Below, piece after piece: positions 58,116 to 63,889 of a stretch of 63,889 bases of DNA. The notes beneath the pieces are model-generated. The model was not told the DNA's origin and made no database searches. It saw nothing but the letters and a program-made list of their open reading frames with translations. The translations under genes and the position numbers were made by a program. The stretch lies in contig DIDN01000034.1 in assembly GCA_002418185.1 (NCBI GenBank), positions 1 through 63,889 of the forward strand, read 5' to 3'. The first letter of the stretch is position 1. Each line of letters begins with the position of its first letter. The stretch comes from Deltaproteobacteria bacterium UBA5799 (lineage in GTDB: Bacteria > Desulfobacterota > GWC2-55-46).

Positions 58116-58202
58116 GCCCGAGTGGCGGAATTGGCAGACGCACGGGACTTAAAATCCCGAGGTGGCAACACCGTGCCGGTTCGACCCCGGCCTCGGGCAC
58201 CA
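58116..58202 (+). tRNA. tRNA-Leu (anticodon UAA)
   Basis: Acceptor GCCCGAG/CTCGGGC, anticodon stem cggga/tcccg with loop CTTAAAA, long variable arm, GGTTCGACCCC T-arm, encoded CCA. Confidence 0.9.
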
Positions 58203-58222: not shown

Positions 58223-59317
58223 TTAGTGAATCGAGGCGGCAGCCCTCTCCGGGATTTCGGTTGTTGCGGGGTGGAAATCAGCCGACTGTGCTAAAATTGT
58301 GCTAAATCGCTCCTGAACCTTTTGGGCCGCAAGCTTCAGGTCAGCCTCATTGACGATGTTATACCTGTCAAAGATGCTCCTTGTCTTGTGGCCTGAGACC
58401 TTCATTGCGACCCTTTCAGGAACGCCAGCCCTTACCATATTTCTCACAGCCGTCCTTCTGAAATCGTGGAATATCTTTCCCTCAAGCCCTGCCCTCTTGC
58501 AGGCAGATAACCAAGCCTCTCTAAACCACCTTACGGGCTGCCCGGTCTCGCCGAAAAAGACCCAAGGGCATTTGGGAAACTTCCTGTCCCTCAGGGCCTT
58601 CTGCAATCGCATGGTTTCCAATAGCTCCCCTGCCATGTAGACGACCCTTGATTCCCCGTTCTTGGTGTTTTCCGGCCTGAGGGTAATCTTTCCCTCGAAG
58701 AGGTCAACCTGAGGCCATTGAAGGCTTAGAATCTCCATCTTCCTCATTCCCGTATAGTAGGCCATTGTAGCGACTGGCCTTAGGTAATACGGAAGGGCCT
58801 CCTTGAGGGCCAGATATTCCGGGTGCTCGAAGTATCCCTGCCTGATATTGTTCTCCCTCAAGCTGGGTATGTAAGGCACATTGAGCACCTTTGGAGGGGT
58901 TGCCCTTGCGCCGAGACGGAACATCCGTTTGAGGGCCGCCATTTCCCTGTTGATGGTCGCGTTCTTCGCGCCTTCATTCTGCCTCTTCACGATATAGGAC
59001 TGAATGAGCGTTGTCGTTATCTCCGCAACCTTCATCCCCTTGAACGTCTTTTCAAGGTGCCTGAGGTTCCTCCCTATCCGGTCGAGGGACTTTTTCCCGT
59101 TGACCTGATAATCGAGGGTAAGGCCCTGGCTCAGTTCCTCAAACGTTGTCTCTCTTGCCTCGACTTCGAAGAACTTCCCTTCGACTACCTGAGTCTTTAC
59201 CTTGCAGAGGATTTCCTCTGCCAATTTCTTTGACGTGGTCTCGCATGAACGGCGTACCTGTTTGCCGTTGTACGAAAACCGCATCCACCAGACCGAGCCT
59301 CTCTTGAACAGTCCCAA
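58223..59317 (-). CDS. Tyrosine recombinase / phage-type integrase
   Basis: N-terminal SAM-like core-binding region. The C-terminal catalytic residues lie in ...[14 protein letters not shown]..., HDFRRT and [11 protein letters not shown] (R...HxxR...Y). TTG start directly after the xis stop. Confidence 0.9.
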
Positions 59318-59638
59318 TTAGACCTCCTTCCTGAGGCCTTGATTCGGGCTGGTTTCCCGTTTGGACGTATTGTAACGTTTTCCGGTCACGTCCTCAACGG
59401 CCTTTTTGATTATGTTATCGATATCCAAACCGCTTGATTTTGTTTTGGTTTTCGTAACGTTACGGGCCGTTGCCCTCGACTGCCTGAGCCATTCTTTGAC
59501 CTCTTCCATGTCGAAACGCACAAGGCCGCCCACCTTGTATGATGGAATGGAGCCGTTACGCACCCATGAATAAAGCGTTGGCTCCTTAACGTTCAGGAAC
59601 GTTGATACCTCTTTTATCGTTACAAGCTCCATAACCAT
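59318..59638 (-). CDS. Excisionase-family HTH DNA-binding protein
   Basis: LVTIKEVSTFLNVKEPTLYSWVRNGSIPSYKVGGLVRFDMEEVKEWL is a typical HTH_17/Xis fold motif. Directly upstream of int. Confidence 0.8.
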   Translation of the reverse strand: MVMELVTIKEVSTFLNVKEPTLYSWVRNGSIPSYKVGGLVRFDMEEVKEWLRQSRATARNVTKTKTKSSGLDIDNIIKKAVEDVTGKRYNTSKRETSPNQGLRKEV

Positions 59639-59682
59639 AACGTTGGGCCAACGTTGCCTCAGGCCCGTGTCCTTTCCATAAC

Positions 59683-59726
59683 ATACGTTACGGGAATTAC
59701 CCTTCCATACGTTACGTAACGTATGG
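59683..59726. promoter_or_regulatory. Operator-like site: direct CATACGTTACG repeats and a perfect 22-bp palindrome
   Basis: catacgttacg occurs at 59683-59693 and 59706-59716. ccatacgttacgtaacgtatgg (59705-59726) is its own reverse complement. The site lies upstream of xis-int. Confidence 0.55.
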
Positions 59727-59865
59727 GCTGCTTTTTAGCGATTACAGATACGAGCAAAATCCGTATCGCATACATACGTATATATACGCTTGCCGAGATG
59801 AAGTCCCGGACACCGACAGGGGTGTTTTTTGTCCGGCGTGGGAAGGGCGATAAATAACAAACGTT

Positions 59866-59951
59866 GTCATTCTGAGCGCAGCGAAGAATCTCGTATTTGG
59901 AAAATAGCAAGTTACGAGATTCTTCGGTCGCTTTCGCTCCCTCAGAATGAC
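59866..59951. repeat. GTCATTCTGAG...CTCAGAATGAC hairpin element (about 86 bp)
   Basis: Inverted arms are gtcattctgagcgcagcgaagaatctcgta and tacgagattcttcggtcgctttcgctccctcagaatgac. Same architecture as 12945-13034. Confidence 0.7.
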
Positions 59952-59980
59952 AGGAAGCGGAATCAGGCTAACGTTTGGGG

Positions 59981-60949
59981 CTAAAACCTGTAGAGGGGCT
60001 TTATGTGCCTATTGATGAACTTCTCAAAGGCATAAGGATGGGCGGGGGGGATTATGCCGCAGGACTCAAGGAACCTGTAAAGCTCAAGGCTTCCGAGCTT
60101 GTAAAGGCCCATAGGCCAGAAGAAGTTCAAGACGAAATACGTCTTTCCATGCTGTCCGATTCGCTTAAGCGGGGTGTCCGATACGGCCTTGCCGAGGTCT
60201 TTGAAAAAGCGGGTATCGCCTGTAAGCTGGGCCTTTATTATCCGGGCCTTGACCTTATCGTGGAATAGGAAGCCCTTGTCCAACGTAACGGCCTTGAAGA
60301 GGGCTTTATCATCCCCTTCGCTGAATCTGGCGATAAGCTCATGGATGGTCTTCTGTTGGGCTATATGGGGCAGTATGAAAAAGAGCACCCCTATGAAGGT
60401 CATAAGGACTTCCGGCTTTTCGAACTCGCCTTCAAGCTCGCCTTCTTGAGGGGGCTTTGCCTTCTCAACCTCTGAGAAAAGATAACGGAGCAGGAGGGAA
60501 AAGACTATGGAGAAATAGTCCCTTGTCTCTTTCTCGAAAACGTTGTCCAAATCCGGCTTGAAGGCGGGCCTTCGAGAAAGGGCCTCAAGCTCCCTCCGAT
60601 AATATGCCCTGCTTTCCTCTTCGGGTAGACTTTCTGCAAGGCTTGAGCAAATTTTCAGGACCTTCTCCGGGTTGTCGAGTGAGTTGACCACCTCAAGGAA
60701 GTTTCCCATGATGCCTTTATCAAGGCCGAACTTCTCCAAAAAGCCTGTGAAGCCCTCATTGAACTCGCCTCTGTAGAAGTCCTGCCATTGGCAGCCTGTA
60801 ACCTCCTGAACGATATCCTCCGGCAGGCAGGGAAACCCCTCTGAGGGGCTTTTTTCGAGCTGGCCTATGAAGTCCAGAAAACAGGCGGCAAGCCTGTCAA
60901 GGCAGGGGTCTATCTTCCGCTTCCAGTTGTCATTGGGAGGTCTCTTCAC
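59981..60949 (-). CDS. Hypothetical protein (island cargo, no recognisable domain)
   Basis: 322-aa ORF with lower-GC codon usage consistent with the island. It is divergent from mod. I recognise no motif. Confidence 0.65.
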   Translation of the reverse strand: MKRPPNDNWKRKIDPCLDRLAACFLDFIGQLEKSPSEGFPCLPEDIVQEVTGCQWQDFYRGEFNEGFTGFLEKFGLDKGIMGNFLEVVNSLDNPEKVLKICSSLAESLPEEESRAYYRRELEALSRRPAFKPDLDNVFEKETRDYFSIVFSLLLRYLFSEVEKAKPPQEGELEGEFEKPEVLMTFIGVLFFILPHIAQQKTIHELIARFSEGDDKALFKAVTLDKGFLFHDKVKARIIKAQLTGDTRFFKDLGKAVSDTPLKRIGQHGKTYFVLNFFWPMGLYKLGSLELYRFLESCGIIPPAHPYAFEKFINRHIKPLYRF

Positions 60950-61096: not shown

Positions 61097-62716
61097 ATGG
61101 CTATTCTCAATTTCAAGGGCAAGACCTTTGTCCAGAACCATCATCTCGCCGTCAAATTCCACCAGCTTGTCCCCAAAAAGGACTTAAGCCTTACGGACAA
61201 GGCAAGCCTTAACGACAACCTCATAATCAACGGGGACAACCTGAAGGCCCTCAAGGCCCTCCTTCCGACCTATGCCGGAAAGGTGAAGTGCATATACATA
61301 GACCCGCCCTACAACACCGGAAATGAGAAGTGGGCCTATAACGATAATGTAAACTCGCCCATGATGCAGGAATGGCTCGGCAAGGTGGTTGACCGGGAGG
61401 ACCTTACCCGCCATGACAAATGGCTCTGCATGATGATGCCGAGGCTCAAGCTTCTGAGGGAGCTACTGAGGGAAGACGGGGTTATTTTCGTCAACATAGA
61501 TGACAATGAAGTCCATCATCTTAGGATGTTGATGGATGAAATTTTCGGGGCTGATAATTTTCTTGCAGCAATTGCATGGGAGAAGAGGTTTACGAGGAGC
61601 AATAATGCACGCTTATTTTCATCAATAAAAGACTATATCGTAACATATCGTAAAAGCCCTGCCGTTTCACAGCTCAGAGAGGCCCGTTCCGAAAAATCAG
61701 ATTCTATTTATTCCAATCCCGATAATGACCCCAGAGGGCCTTGGACAAGCGTTTCATATGTTAATCCAGCAACAAAGGCTCAAAGACCAAATTTAACATA
61801 CAAAATCAAGAATCCTTTTTCTAAAAAGATGATTGAGCACCCGACAAATGCATGGAAATACAGTTATGAGGTTTATCTCGAACACGAAAAAGAAAATCGT
61901 TTGCATTGGGGCGAAGCGGGAGGGAATACTTTCCCAAGATTGAAAAAATTCCTTTCAGAAGTCGAGGGAGGCATTGTTCCAACCGATTTGTGGCGATATG
62001 ATGATGCAGGCACAACCGATGAGGGAAGCAAGGAGCTTGATGAAATCATAGGTAAGGATATCTTTGATAACCCCAAGCCTACAAAGCTTATAAAAAAGAT
62101 TTTAAATCTCGCATTAGATGATTCGGAAAATTCTATAATCCTCGACTCCTTCGGAGGCTCCGGCACAACCGCCCATGCCGTATTAGACCTGAACAAAGAG
62201 GACGGGGGCAATCGCAAATTCATCCTTGTCGAGTGCGAGGACTACGCAGACAAGATAACAGCCGAGAGGGTGAGAAGGGTAATAAAAGGCGTAAAGGGCG
62301 CAAAGGATGAAAAGCTCAAGGAAGGGCTTGGAGGCTCTTTCAGCTTCTTCGAGCTTGGCGACCCTATCGAGATGGAAAGCATACTTGAGGGCAGGAAACT
62401 CCCCTCTTATCTCGACCTTGCAAGATATGTCTTCTATACCGCAACGGGCGAGGAGTTCGACCCGAAGAAGGTCAACGAGAAGAAGAACTTCATCGGCGAA
62501 TCACGGGAGTATGAGGCGTATCTTTTCTATAAGCCTGATATAGAGTACCTTAAAAGGACGGCTCTGAACCTCGACCTTGCAAAGAGCCTGGGCGAGTACA
62601 AGGGCAAGAAACGCCTTGTCTTCGCGCCCTCGAAGTATCTCGACACCAACTACCTTCTTGATTACCGCATCGAGTATTGCCAACTGCCGTTTGAGATTTA
62701 CAAATTAAAGGGCTAG
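61097..62716 (+). CDS. mod: Type III R-M DNA methyltransferase (Mod, beta-class N6/N4)
   Basis: Motif IV IYIDPPYNTG is N-terminal, motif I LDSFGGSGTTAHAV is C-terminal, and a variable TRD lies between them. res follows downstream. Confidence 0.85.
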   Translation: MAILNFKGKTFVQNHHLAVKFHQLVPKKDLSLTDKASLNDNLIINGDNLKALKALLPTYAGKVKCIYIDPPYNTGNEKWAYNDNVNSPMMQEWLGKVVDREDLTRHDKWLCMMMPRLKLLRELLREDGVIFVNIDDNEVHHLRMLMDEIFGADNFLAAIAWEKRFTRSNNARLFSSIKDYIVTYRKSPAVSQLREARSEKSDSIYSNPDNDPRGPWTSVSYVNPATKAQRPNLTYKIKNPFSKKMIEHPTNAWKYSYEVYLEHEKENRLHWGEAGGNTFPRLKKFLSEVEGGIVPTDLWRYDDAGTTDEGSKELDEIIGKDIFDNPKPTKLIKKILNLALDDSENSIILDSFGGSGTTAHAVLDLNKEDGGNRKFILVECEDYADKITAERVRRVIKGVKGAKDEKLKEGLGGSFSFFELGDPIEMESILEGRKLPSYLDLARYVFYTATGEEFDPKKVNEKKNFIGESREYEAYLFYKPDIEYLKRTALNLDLAKSLGEYKGKKRLVFAPSKYLDTNYLLDYRIEYCQLPFEIYKLKG

Positions 62717-62723
62717 GACAATT

Positions 62724-63143
62724 ATGAGTATCGCAGAAATAAGCGGACTGCTAACCGGGATTAAAGCGGCAAGTGATATACTTCTTTTTGTAAGGAATGC
62801 AGATTTTTCCTTGGAAAAGGCCGAACTCAAATTTAAGCTATCTGAGTTAATGAGCGCACTTGCAGATGTGAAAATTCAAGCCGCACAAGTTCAGGATGTG
62901 TTATTGCAAAAGGACGAGCAAATAAAAGAGCTAACTAAGGCACTTGAACTCAAGGCCAAAGTTAAAAGAGAAGGTAATGCATACTATGAAGTAGATACAA
63001 ATGAAAATGCTGTTGGAGACCCATATTGCTCTAATTGCTGGGAAACCTCTTTTAGGCTTGTGCATTTGAATTATATAGAACATTGGAATCGTTGTCCTTT
63101 CTGTAAAACCACATATGAGGCGCATTTAACCAGAACAAAATAA
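62724..63143 (+). CDS. Hypothetical coiled-coil plus C-terminal zinc-ribbon protein
   Basis: N-terminal amphipathic helix or coiled coil (KFKLSELMSALADVKIQAAQVQDVLLQKDEQIKELTKALE). C-terminal CSNCW...x22...CPFC. It starts after a 7-nt gap following the mod stop. Confidence 0.7.
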   Translation: MSIAEISGLLTGIKAASDILLFVRNADFSLEKAELKFKLSELMSALADVKIQAAQVQDVLLQKDEQIKELTKALELKAKVKREGNAYYEVDTNENAVGDPYCSNCWETSFRLVHLNYIEHWNRCPFCKTTYEAHLTRTK

Positions 63144-63155
63144 AAAAGGTATAAA

Positions 63156-63416
63156 ATGCCTGAAATAAGTCGCTTTTTCGGTATAATCATATTGATGTTT
63201 CACAAAGACCATAACCCGCCCCATTTTCATGCGAGATATGGAGGTGAGAAGGCGGCGATAAGGATTGCGGATTTTGCAATACTTGAAGGCTATCTATCGC
63301 CGAGGGCATTGGGCCTTGTAATGGAGTGGGCTGAAATACATAAAGACGAACTTTTGAAGAATTGGGATTTGGCAAAGGATAAGCAACCGCTCTTTCATAT
63401 TGAGCCGCTTAAGTAA
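63156..63416 (+). CDS. DUF4160-family protein
   Basis: MPEISRFFGIIILMFHKDHNPPHFHARYGG is the characteristic DUF4160 N-terminus. Confidence 0.8.
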   Translation: MPEISRFFGIIILMFHKDHNPPHFHARYGGEKAAIRIADFAILEGYLSPRALGLVMEWAEIHKDELLKNWDLAKDKQPLFHIEPLK

Positions 63417-63428
63417 GGAGGGCTGGCC

Positions 63429-63719
63429 ATGTATGATGTTATCAAGGCTGAATATCTTGAAGGCTACAAGATAGCCGTAACGTTCGAAAACGGGAAAAAT
63501 GGCGTAGTTGACTTCAAGGATTATCCGAAGCTTGGCGGTGTTTATGCCCGTTTTGCTGATATGGAATATTTTAGGAAGTTTTTCATTAATGAAGAAACCG
63601 GAGTGCTGTGCTGGCCTGATGAAGTGGATGTCGCACCGGAGACACTTTATCACGAAGCAACCGGAGAGCCTTTGCCAAAATGGATGAATGATGATTCTGA
63701 CCGGAAAAAAGCTATTTGA
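63429..63719 (+). CDS. DUF2442-family protein
   Basis: YKIAVTFENGKNGVVDF...GVLCWPDEVDVAPETLY matches the DUF2442 pattern. It is the usual partner gene of DUF4160. Confidence 0.8.
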   Translation: MYDVIKAEYLEGYKIAVTFENGKNGVVDFKDYPKLGGVYARFADMEYFRKFFINEETGVLCWPDEVDVAPETLYHEATGEPLPKWMNDDSDRKKAI

Positions 63720-63734
63720 AAGATAAGACGGTAG

Positions 63735-63889
63735 ATGGAGCTTAAAGAGTACCAGAAAAAGACCATCGAGCAGGTAAAGCTCTACCTCGAAGCTCTGGCT
63801 GCGTTCAAGGACAAGAACGAAAAGGCCGTCGAGATAGACCCTGAGCTTTCCATCGACTTTCCCCTGAAGGCTTGGGAGAAGGTCGCAAG
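63735..63889 (+). CDS. res: Type III restriction enzyme Res subunit / DEAD-box helicase-like, N-terminal fragment (runs off the window)
   Basis: MELKEYQKKTIEQVKLYLE is a typical Res/helicase N-terminus. Same strand and operon as mod. Only 51 codons are visible. Confidence 0.55.
   Translation, partial: MELKEYQKKTIEQVKLYLEALAAFKDKNEKAVEIDPELSIDFPLKAWEKVA

Follow-up and report, generated by a model that had tools for sequence, protein, structure and literature searches.

Candidate defence and addiction modules nested between mod and res of a type III restriction-modification operon on an integrative island

Contig DIDN01000034.1 of Deltaproteobacteria bacterium UBA5799 (assembly GCA_002418185.1), analysed here over its full 63,889 nucleotides (nt; the window), ends within a restriction-modification (R-M) operon of type III in which the methyltransferase gene, mod, and the restriction gene, res, are separated by three small genes. 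One of these encodes a 139-residue zinc-ribbon protein, the other two a predicted toxin-antitoxin (TA) pair. On balance, the three genes are best explained by embedding: they would be independent defence and addiction modules, co-transcribed with the type III R-M genes at a recurrent cargo slot. The locus adds a further case to the known tendency of defence genes to lie within other defence systems and is no new composite system. It is carried by an island of about 9.9 kb with a low guanine-cytosine (GC) content, inserted at a tRNA-Leu gene.

The operon begins on the plus strand with mod (61097-62716), which encodes a type III DNA methyltransferase of 539 residues (PF01555, 1e-34; PADLOC MTase_III PDLC03644, 2.4e-164). 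The protein covers positions 1-540 of the 542 in the PADLOC profile and is full length by this measure; in its translation, the catalytic DPPY motif (IDPPYNTG, around residue 68) precedes the target-recognition region, which is followed by the AdoMet-binding FGGSGTT (DSFGGSGTT, around residue 350). Next on the same strand come the gene for the 139-residue protein (62724-63143; cargo 1), a helical hairpin joined to a four-cysteine zinc ribbon and probably a distant homologue of the Rip1 family; the genes for a DhiT-family toxin (DUF4160) of 86 residues (63156-63416; PF13711, 7.3e-24; cargo 2a) and a DhiA-family antitoxin (DUF2442) of 96 residues (63429-63719; PF10387, 2.3e-17; cargo 2b); and the first 51 codons of res (63735-63889), cut by the end of the window. 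A sequence-only reading of the same DNA had listed five same-strand open reading frames (ORFs) spaced by 7, 12, 12 and 15 nt, and its coordinates proved exact: the ORF listing and the raw sequence give the same gaps, in the order mod, 139-residue protein, DUF4160, DUF2442, res. The genes of the type III operon are split by 1018 nt holding three genes (996 bp of coding sequence), just as that reading had proposed, and direct mod-res adjacency with coupling is absent here.

Is the truncated last gene really res? The same reading could call it only putatively; a public Logan contig, found via exact protein identity, settles the point. This contig (L001, 8127 bp) overlaps the window from 59925 to its end, encodes Mod and 139-residue proteins identical to those of the window, and continues downstream through a complete res of 831 codons (L001 3811-6306). 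Its product matches PF04851 ResIII (5.7e-15) and positions 70-878 of the 883 in PADLOC REase_III (1.3e-188), and its translation displays a Walker A motif (PTGGGKT), a DEGH box (IIDEGH) and a C-terminal PD...ETK signature (YPDF...VVETKG). With Mod and Res both full length by profile, the type III R-M system is, by this criterion, intact. No terminator-like site was found on the plus strand between the starts of mod and res; downstream of the mod start, the only such site falls within res. Gaps of at most 15 nt and the lack of a plus-strand terminator between the genes make an operon-like layout, which is consistent with the single transcription unit that had been proposed, without proving it; the five genes are probably read as one transcript from the mod promoter.

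In canonical type III R-M systems of the EcoP15I/EcoP1I type, res directly follows mod. A scan with Mod of one genome per species retrieved 80 loci with Mod proteins 55-88% identical to that of the window, 77 of them with res downstream, and the junction between the two genes could be compared across these relatives. The mod-res gap is 25 nt or less in 38 of the 77. The closest relative (L011; Mod 88% and Res 79% identical) has no cassette: the distance from mod stop to res start is 7 nt by tblastn estimate, and in the junction sequence the mod stop codon is separated from a GTG start by GCA alone. Because mod and res are adjacent in the closest relative and nearly so in those 38 loci, the three-gene cassette of the window is an insertion relative to an ancestral mod-res adjacency. 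It is not the only one: the junction is occupied, by 300-2456 nt, in 29 of the 77 relatives (38%), and in 27 of these 29 the largest ORF lies on the same strand as the R-M genes. The cargo is diverse and includes YhcG/DUF1016, Uma2, DUF6978 with DUF1828, SEC-C with Bro-N, DUF3800, an XRE-Peptidase_M78 protein with DUF4411, DUF4258 with DUF2283, HicA alongside two HicB-like genes, a PIN toxin preceded by a small partner (VapBC-like), and PDDEXK_3 (one locus tested against Pfam, with four more similar by eye). This cargo is unrelated to that of the window; the junction is a hotspot, a recurrent slot at which cargo turns over. Neither the DhiT/DhiA pair nor a homologue of the 139-residue protein occupies the junction in any of the 80 related loci; in one of them (L030) a DhiT/DhiA pair lies 6 kb from the R-M genes, on the opposite strand. 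A comparison of junction sequences revealed no obvious recombination site or target duplication.

Several of the occupied gaps share uncharacterised cargo of their own. In L012, L023, L025, L042 and L051, a family of 115-131 residues with the motif EPIPYF.DSINRNA occurs alone or with a protein of 166-169 residues, and other cargo in this group of gaps includes a 128-residue protein with a weak WYL match. All of these proteins are candidates for 'guilt-by-embedding' in type III systems.

What, then, is the cargo of the window? The DUF4160/DUF2442 pair is a predicted type II TA system of the DhiT/DhiA family. The sequence-only reading had taken the two domains as uncharacterised, which they are not: in Dickeya dadantii 3937, DUF4160/DUF2442 form the toxin-first DhiT/DhiA system, for which toxicity, neutralisation, co-transcription and autoregulation have been validated (PMC8198452); on Thermus plasmids, they form a 'persistence-enhancing module' in which the product of the second ORF counteracts that of the first (PMC12724237); both proteins have NCBIfam models; and DUF4160 is also the effector domain of NsnC-like proteins of Menshen (PMC12065111). 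The 86-residue protein matches NCBIfam toxin_DhiT with 1.7e-22 and 79.8 bits (equivalog cut-off 100) and the 96-residue protein matches antoxin_DhiA with 4.2e-07 and 30.5 bits (cut-off 200). Both scores fall below the cut-offs, so the window pair are members of these families, not equivalogs of the Dickeya pair. As judged from this family membership, DhiT and DhiA of the window would act as toxin and antitoxin.

The 139-residue protein is harder to place, as it has no match in Pfam, NCBIfam or PADLOC. A word-index search recovered 3 relatives, suggesting a rare family, a reading that was rejected by an exhaustive profile search of 1.84 billion cluster representatives: 2514 clusters match with E ≤ 1e-3, 912 with E ≤ 1e-10 and 100 with E ≤ 1e-30. 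All family members are 130-160 residues long, keep the helical N-terminal half and have four near-invariant cysteines. An AlphaFold2 (AF2) model built on a 65-sequence alignment (mean predicted local distance difference test score, pLDDT, 88.9) places helices at residues 3-25 and 34-77 ahead of a beta-rich zinc ribbon (CxxC...CxxC). The model thus upholds the coiled-coil half and the ribbon that had been noticed in the sequence; the accompanying statement that the protein has no assigned function needs revision, as its family can be linked to Rip1.

The primary description of Rip1 (ring interacting pore 1; structure 9OOX) is reportedly that of Patel et al. in 2026. Rip1 is an antiphage defence made up of a single prophage-encoded protein that, once triggered by rings of portal or small terminase, assembles into a 12-mer ring and perforates the membrane via an N-terminal amphipathic helix (PMC13434031; PMC12908700); its gene lies between terS and terL (PMC13434031). 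A search of the Protein Data Bank (PDB) with the profile of the 139-residue family gave a nearly full-length match to Rip1 (9oox_L, E = 0.0037). Homologues of Rip1 were then recovered, and hhalign of 14 aligned Rip1-family sequences against the 65 sequences of the 139-residue family gave a probability of 96.3-96.6% (E = 1.6e-9, over 129 columns, and 5.5e-10), with residues 5-134 of the 139-residue protein aligned to residues 14-158 of Rip1 and both domains covered. Each half matches on its own (N-terminal, 1.1e-4; C-terminal, 1.3e-4), while the controls, namely crossed halves, a reversed alignment and five column shuffles, all gave E ≥ 0.045. The four cysteines are conserved in both families, and the models of the 139-residue protein and of a Rip1 homologue (pLDDT 71.9 for the latter; compared without superposition) show the same succession of elements, in which two helices and a beta hairpin are followed by a strand, then a short helix and finally three strands. 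A Foldseek search of BFVD with the model of the 139-residue protein returned one significant full-length match, to M4STA4, an unnamed viral protein of 156 residues (E = 9.7e-5; template modelling score 0.62; 144 columns).

Several observations pull the other way. The relationship to Rip1 is remote, with 23% identity in the hhalign alignment, and coiled-coil-rich sequences inflate profile scores. A Foldseek search of the PDB (to 2026-04-08) with the model of the 139-residue protein returned nothing below E = 0.4, the list not including 9oox, which was apparently outside the library; a search of BFVD with the low-confidence model of the Rip1 homologue gave nothing significant and did not recover M4STA4. 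No homologue of the 139-residue protein was found in phage genomes by tblastn, and none in viral contigs scanned with a 4-sequence alignment; the Rip1 family, by contrast, is represented in 56 phage records. Taken together, the profile alignments make true homology to Rip1 probable, and by analogy a Rip1-like function is a serious, if somewhat doubtful, prospect.

Most members of the family lie outside R-M loci. Among 69 distinct loci that encode homologues of the 139-residue protein, the neighbours are a mixture typical of variable or defence regions: PIN, HicA, MazE, DarT, DUF5615/DUF433, AbiTii, AAA_15/AAA_21, DUF4062, integrases and transposases. On an Enterobacter hormaechei plasmid, pVIM-Exn692 (IncC, VIM; L178, NZ_OR497351.1 164792-165211), a homologue follows genes for a qacG-like small multidrug resistance (SMR) protein and an alpha/beta hydrolase; on marine metagenome contigs L092-L094, homologues belong to arrays of small ORFs on one strand, with about 80-100 nt between neighbours. 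The two contexts resemble integron gene cassettes. In at least eight loci, the homologue is followed by a conserved ORF of 96-97 codons, mostly overlapping its stop codon by 4 nt (L095 5453-5743; L110 4457-4747; L117 2231-2521; L124 4456-4746; L127 4277-4570; L130 3147-3440; L131 2907-3197; L137 4447-4737). The partner has the motif ELRYHGYSR.VEP...GWKLLKV and appears WYL-like by eye, with no Pfam or PADLOC match; it may define a two-gene subtype of the Rip1-like family. That it might be a diverged DhiA or DhiT was considered and rejected (hhalign probability ≤0.2%).

How would such a slot work? The embedding model suggests that it holds two self-contained modules, neither of which needs the R-M enzyme. 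By analogy with Rip1, the 139-residue protein would remain inert until ring oligomers made late in infection (portal or small terminase) nucleate a Rip1-like ring, whereupon its N-terminal amphipathic helices would open pores in the inner membrane, aborting the infection. The DhiT/DhiA pair would serve as an addiction module for the operon or the island, and possibly as an abortive-infection module. Embedding would confer co-regulation, co-transfer and layered defence: restriction early, a pore late, and a TA pair for retention. Elsewhere, the cargo appears autonomous because DhiT/DhiA has been validated as a two-gene TA system and homologues of the 139-residue protein have heterogeneous neighbours; here too, it presumably works independently of the R-M enzyme. 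Further points count against this account. Co-transcription and the activity of every gene are read from sequence. In one of the 69 loci (L153, 27-4411), a homologue of the 139-residue protein does stand beside type III R-M genes, 28 nt after res and on the same strand, although these belong to a different R-M subfamily (MTase_III 6.6e-54; REase_III 1.2e-20). And the closest homologues of the 139-residue protein (52% identity; L091, L099-L102) also adjoin a DhiT/DhiA pair, which hints that the three genes are not fully independent.

This last observation invites an explanation in which the three cargo genes form one tripartite module, with the zinc-ribbon protein as, e.g., a sensor or a third component in control of DhiT/DhiA; the R-M operon would have received this module as a whole. 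In all five of these nearest loci (L091, L099, L100-L102) the DUF4160/DUF2442 pair lies on the same strand as the homologue, and in the window the three genes are only 12 nt apart. The order of the genes, however, is not the same: DhiT and DhiA come before the zinc-ribbon gene, by about 130 nt, in L091 and L100-L102 and after it in the window. No DhiT/DhiA pair was found in the other 64 of the 69 loci, at least eight of which have instead the translationally coupled 96-residue partner, unrelated to DhiT or DhiA; in Dickeya and Thermus, DhiT/DhiA functions as a system of two genes (PMC8198452; PMC12724237); the DhiT of the window is nearer to that of L030, which has no zinc-ribbon neighbour, than to that of L091 (59% versus 46%); and GC content differs between the gene for the 139-residue protein (38%) and DhiT/DhiA (43%). 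A tripartite module is therefore unlikely. The cassette could also be a guardian of restriction, as PrrC is in EcoPrrI: a toxin or pore held in check by Mod/Res and freed when a phage anti-restriction protein disables the complex. Its location, precisely at the mod-res junction, in the same orientation and tightly spaced, would suit such a role, for which PrrC in a type IC locus is a precedent (PMC12707154; bioRxiv 10.1101/2024.01.29.577857), as would the homologue directly after type III res in L153. Yet the closest R-M relatives do without the cassette, unrelated cargo fills the slot in those 29 relatives, both cargo families occur overwhelmingly outside R-M loci whereas PrrC is almost exclusively embedded, and the mechanisms described for Rip1 and DhiT/DhiA are autonomous; a guardian role is distinctly improbable.

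Could the 139-residue protein be a zinc-ribbon regulator that binds nucleic acids, e.g., a controller holding back res expression after transfer or one acting on the TA promoter, instead of a Rip1-like effector? A zinc ribbon with a coiled coil is a generic architecture, fold searches of the PDB gave only ribosomal zinc ribbons and helical hairpins, and the gene is upstream of res, a position from which controller proteins work in certain R-M systems. Against these stand the match to the Rip1 family, which is collinear in both halves and includes the C..C[WY]E and C..C...Y motifs, and the N-terminal helix, G/A/S-rich and hydrophobic like that of Rip1; moreover, most family members have no neighbouring R-M or TA genes in need of this kind of regulation, and relatives of this R-M system function without the protein. 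A regulatory role is accordingly rather improbable. More broadly, embedding has a small chance of being functional in itself, with the Rip1-like protein and/or DhiT checked by, or sensing, Mod/Res in a PrrC-like manner, or with the zinc ribbon and DhiT/DhiA making up a three-component sensor-toxin-antitoxin system that would recur in the nearest clade; either would couple restriction to a TA pair and a pore-forming sensor in a new manner. The embedding of independent modules remains the preferred reading. The sequence-only reading was essentially right in one of its options, an addiction or abortive-infection module lying within an R-M system. For its other option, an accessory or regulatory layer new to type III restriction, and for an undescribed composite defence system there is no evidence: the nearest R-M relative has no cassette, 29 of 77 relatives carry other cargo, and 1 of the 69 loci with homologues of the 139-residue protein lies beside type III R-M genes. 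The co-occurrence search found, by and large, an independent insertion that does not co-vary with R-M genes.

The operon is the core of a larger mobile unit. A tRNA-Leu(TAA) gene (58116-58202, plus strand; ARAGORN), the island integration site, is adjoined by a gene for a tyrosine integrase of 364 residues (58223-59317, minus strand; PF00589 Phage_integrase, 1.6e-23, with N-terminal SAM-like domains), followed by one for an HTH_17/AlpA-like small DNA-binding protein of 106 residues, probably an excisionase or regulator (59318-59638, minus strand; PF12728, 3.2e-15). Divergent from mod lies a gene for a 322-residue protein with no Pfam, PADLOC or NCBIfam match (59981-60949, minus strand) and with no counterpart in any of the 80 related R-M loci. 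At the other end, the last 30 nt of L001 (8098-8127) are 100% identical by blastn to window positions 58148-58177, inside the tRNA-Leu gene; this repeat and the integrase next to the tRNA identify the distal attachment (att) repeat and an island of about 9.9 kb. Its order is integrase, excisionase-like protein, 322-residue protein, mod, the three cargo genes, res, a TIR gene, a tail-anchored membrane protein, a 65-residue protein and the 30-nt repeat. Against 60% GC in the host, the island is low and mosaic overall (34-52%): mod has 46%, the gene for the 139-residue protein 38%, DhiT/DhiA 43%, res 50% and the TIR gene 34%. This pattern points to a foreign, mosaic origin.

Downstream of res, L001 reveals additional cargo (L001 6308-7923). 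The likely ATG of the TIR gene lies 1 nt past the res stop codon; its product matches TIR_2 (1.2e-26) and, weakly, PADLOC PDC-S66, bSEFIR and ThsB, and has a weakly winged-helix-like C-terminus. Genes for a 144-residue protein with a hydrophobic C-terminal tail and for the 65-residue protein follow on the same strand with tight spacing. None of the three is present in any of the 80 related R-M loci; together, they could make up another defence module on that same transcript.

The assemblies themselves have two features of note. The window and three independent public contigs (L002-L004) all stop at the same base, 63889, in res codon 51, and L001 and L002 both begin at the same base, window position 59925. 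A second copy of res, mod or the downstream sequence that could cause the break at 63889 was not found within the window; the shared break looks like a branch in the assembly graph, perhaps reflecting strain variation or recombination in res. The other break, at 59925, falls within the non-coding region between the HTH_17 gene and the gene for the 322-residue protein (59640-59980), which holds repeat-like sequence (...CGCTCCCTCAGAATGACAGG...). Its translations resemble those of small insertions between mod and res in L082 and L087, and it may be a dispersed small repeat element.

The findings at this locus do not overturn current understanding; they extend to type III R-M the rule that defence genes nest inside defence systems. 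The mod-res slot is precise and highly occupied (38% of 77 relatives), and it could be mined for new small defence or TA modules, as type I R-M, BREX, DISARM and Hma have been. The findings also suggest that Rip1 represents only the prophage-borne edge of a far larger superfamily without annotation, with hundreds to thousands of clusters in environmental bacteria, whose members reside on islands, plasmids and integron-like arrays and in some cases have a conserved 96-residue partner gene. With restriction, a candidate pore, a TA pair and a TIR protein on about 10 kb, the island offers a compact natural construct in which layered defence could be tested. The most useful leads are the type III junction, as a source of new cargo, and the large branch of the Rip1 superfamily that lies outside prophages.

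How does the locus compare with its best-known counterparts? Like the canonical type III systems EcoP15I and EcoP1I, it has a Mod with the DPPY...FxGxG order, a Res with superfamily 2 (SF2) helicase motifs and a C-terminal PD-(D/E)xK motif, and mod followed by res on one strand; unlike them, it has three genes between mod and res and a TIR-domain gene 1 nt after res. The TA pair shares with DhiT/DhiA of Dickeya both Pfam domains, the unusual toxin-first order, the sizes (86 and 96 residues) and tight spacing (12 nt here). Unlike the Dickeya pair, it has a DhiA without the longer C-terminal part of the 160-position model, and it has no upstream promoter region of its own because it is embedded in an operon. 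The 139-residue protein resembles Rip1 (164 residues) in size, in a predicted N-terminal G/A/S-rich amphipathic helix that precedes a long helix, in a C-terminal four-cysteine domain with an identical pattern of cysteine spacing, and in being encoded by a single-gene mobile cassette. It differs from Rip1 in that its gene lies between mod and res on an island and not between terS and terL of a prophage; its family is found in islands, integron-like arrays and TA clusters, whereas Rip1 is prophage-borne; and a subfamily has the 96-residue partner gene.

The closest parallels for the arrangement as a whole come from defence systems nested within Hma, BREX, DISARM and type I R-M, from which 'guilt-by-embedding' was derived (Payne et al., bioRxiv 10.1101/2024.01.29.577857). 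Examples include DarTG2 between hsdS and hsdR (PMC12255303), TgvAB in Vibrio type I R-M (PMC12409362) and PrrC in EcoPrrI, a type IC locus (PMC12707154). The literature search found no description of embedding at type III mod-res junctions, and a term search of Makarova et al. 2013 (PMC3632139) turned up no mention of it for type III R-M. The present locus is like the known cases in that small, presumably autonomous defence or TA cassettes lie between genes of a DNA-modification system in the same orientation, the cargo is diverse and turns over, and the homologues of the cargo are mostly non-embedded. Unlike them, it combines a Rip1-like gene with DhiT/DhiA, a combination not reported by Payne et al., and it has a type III host, in which the slot is the mod-res junction.

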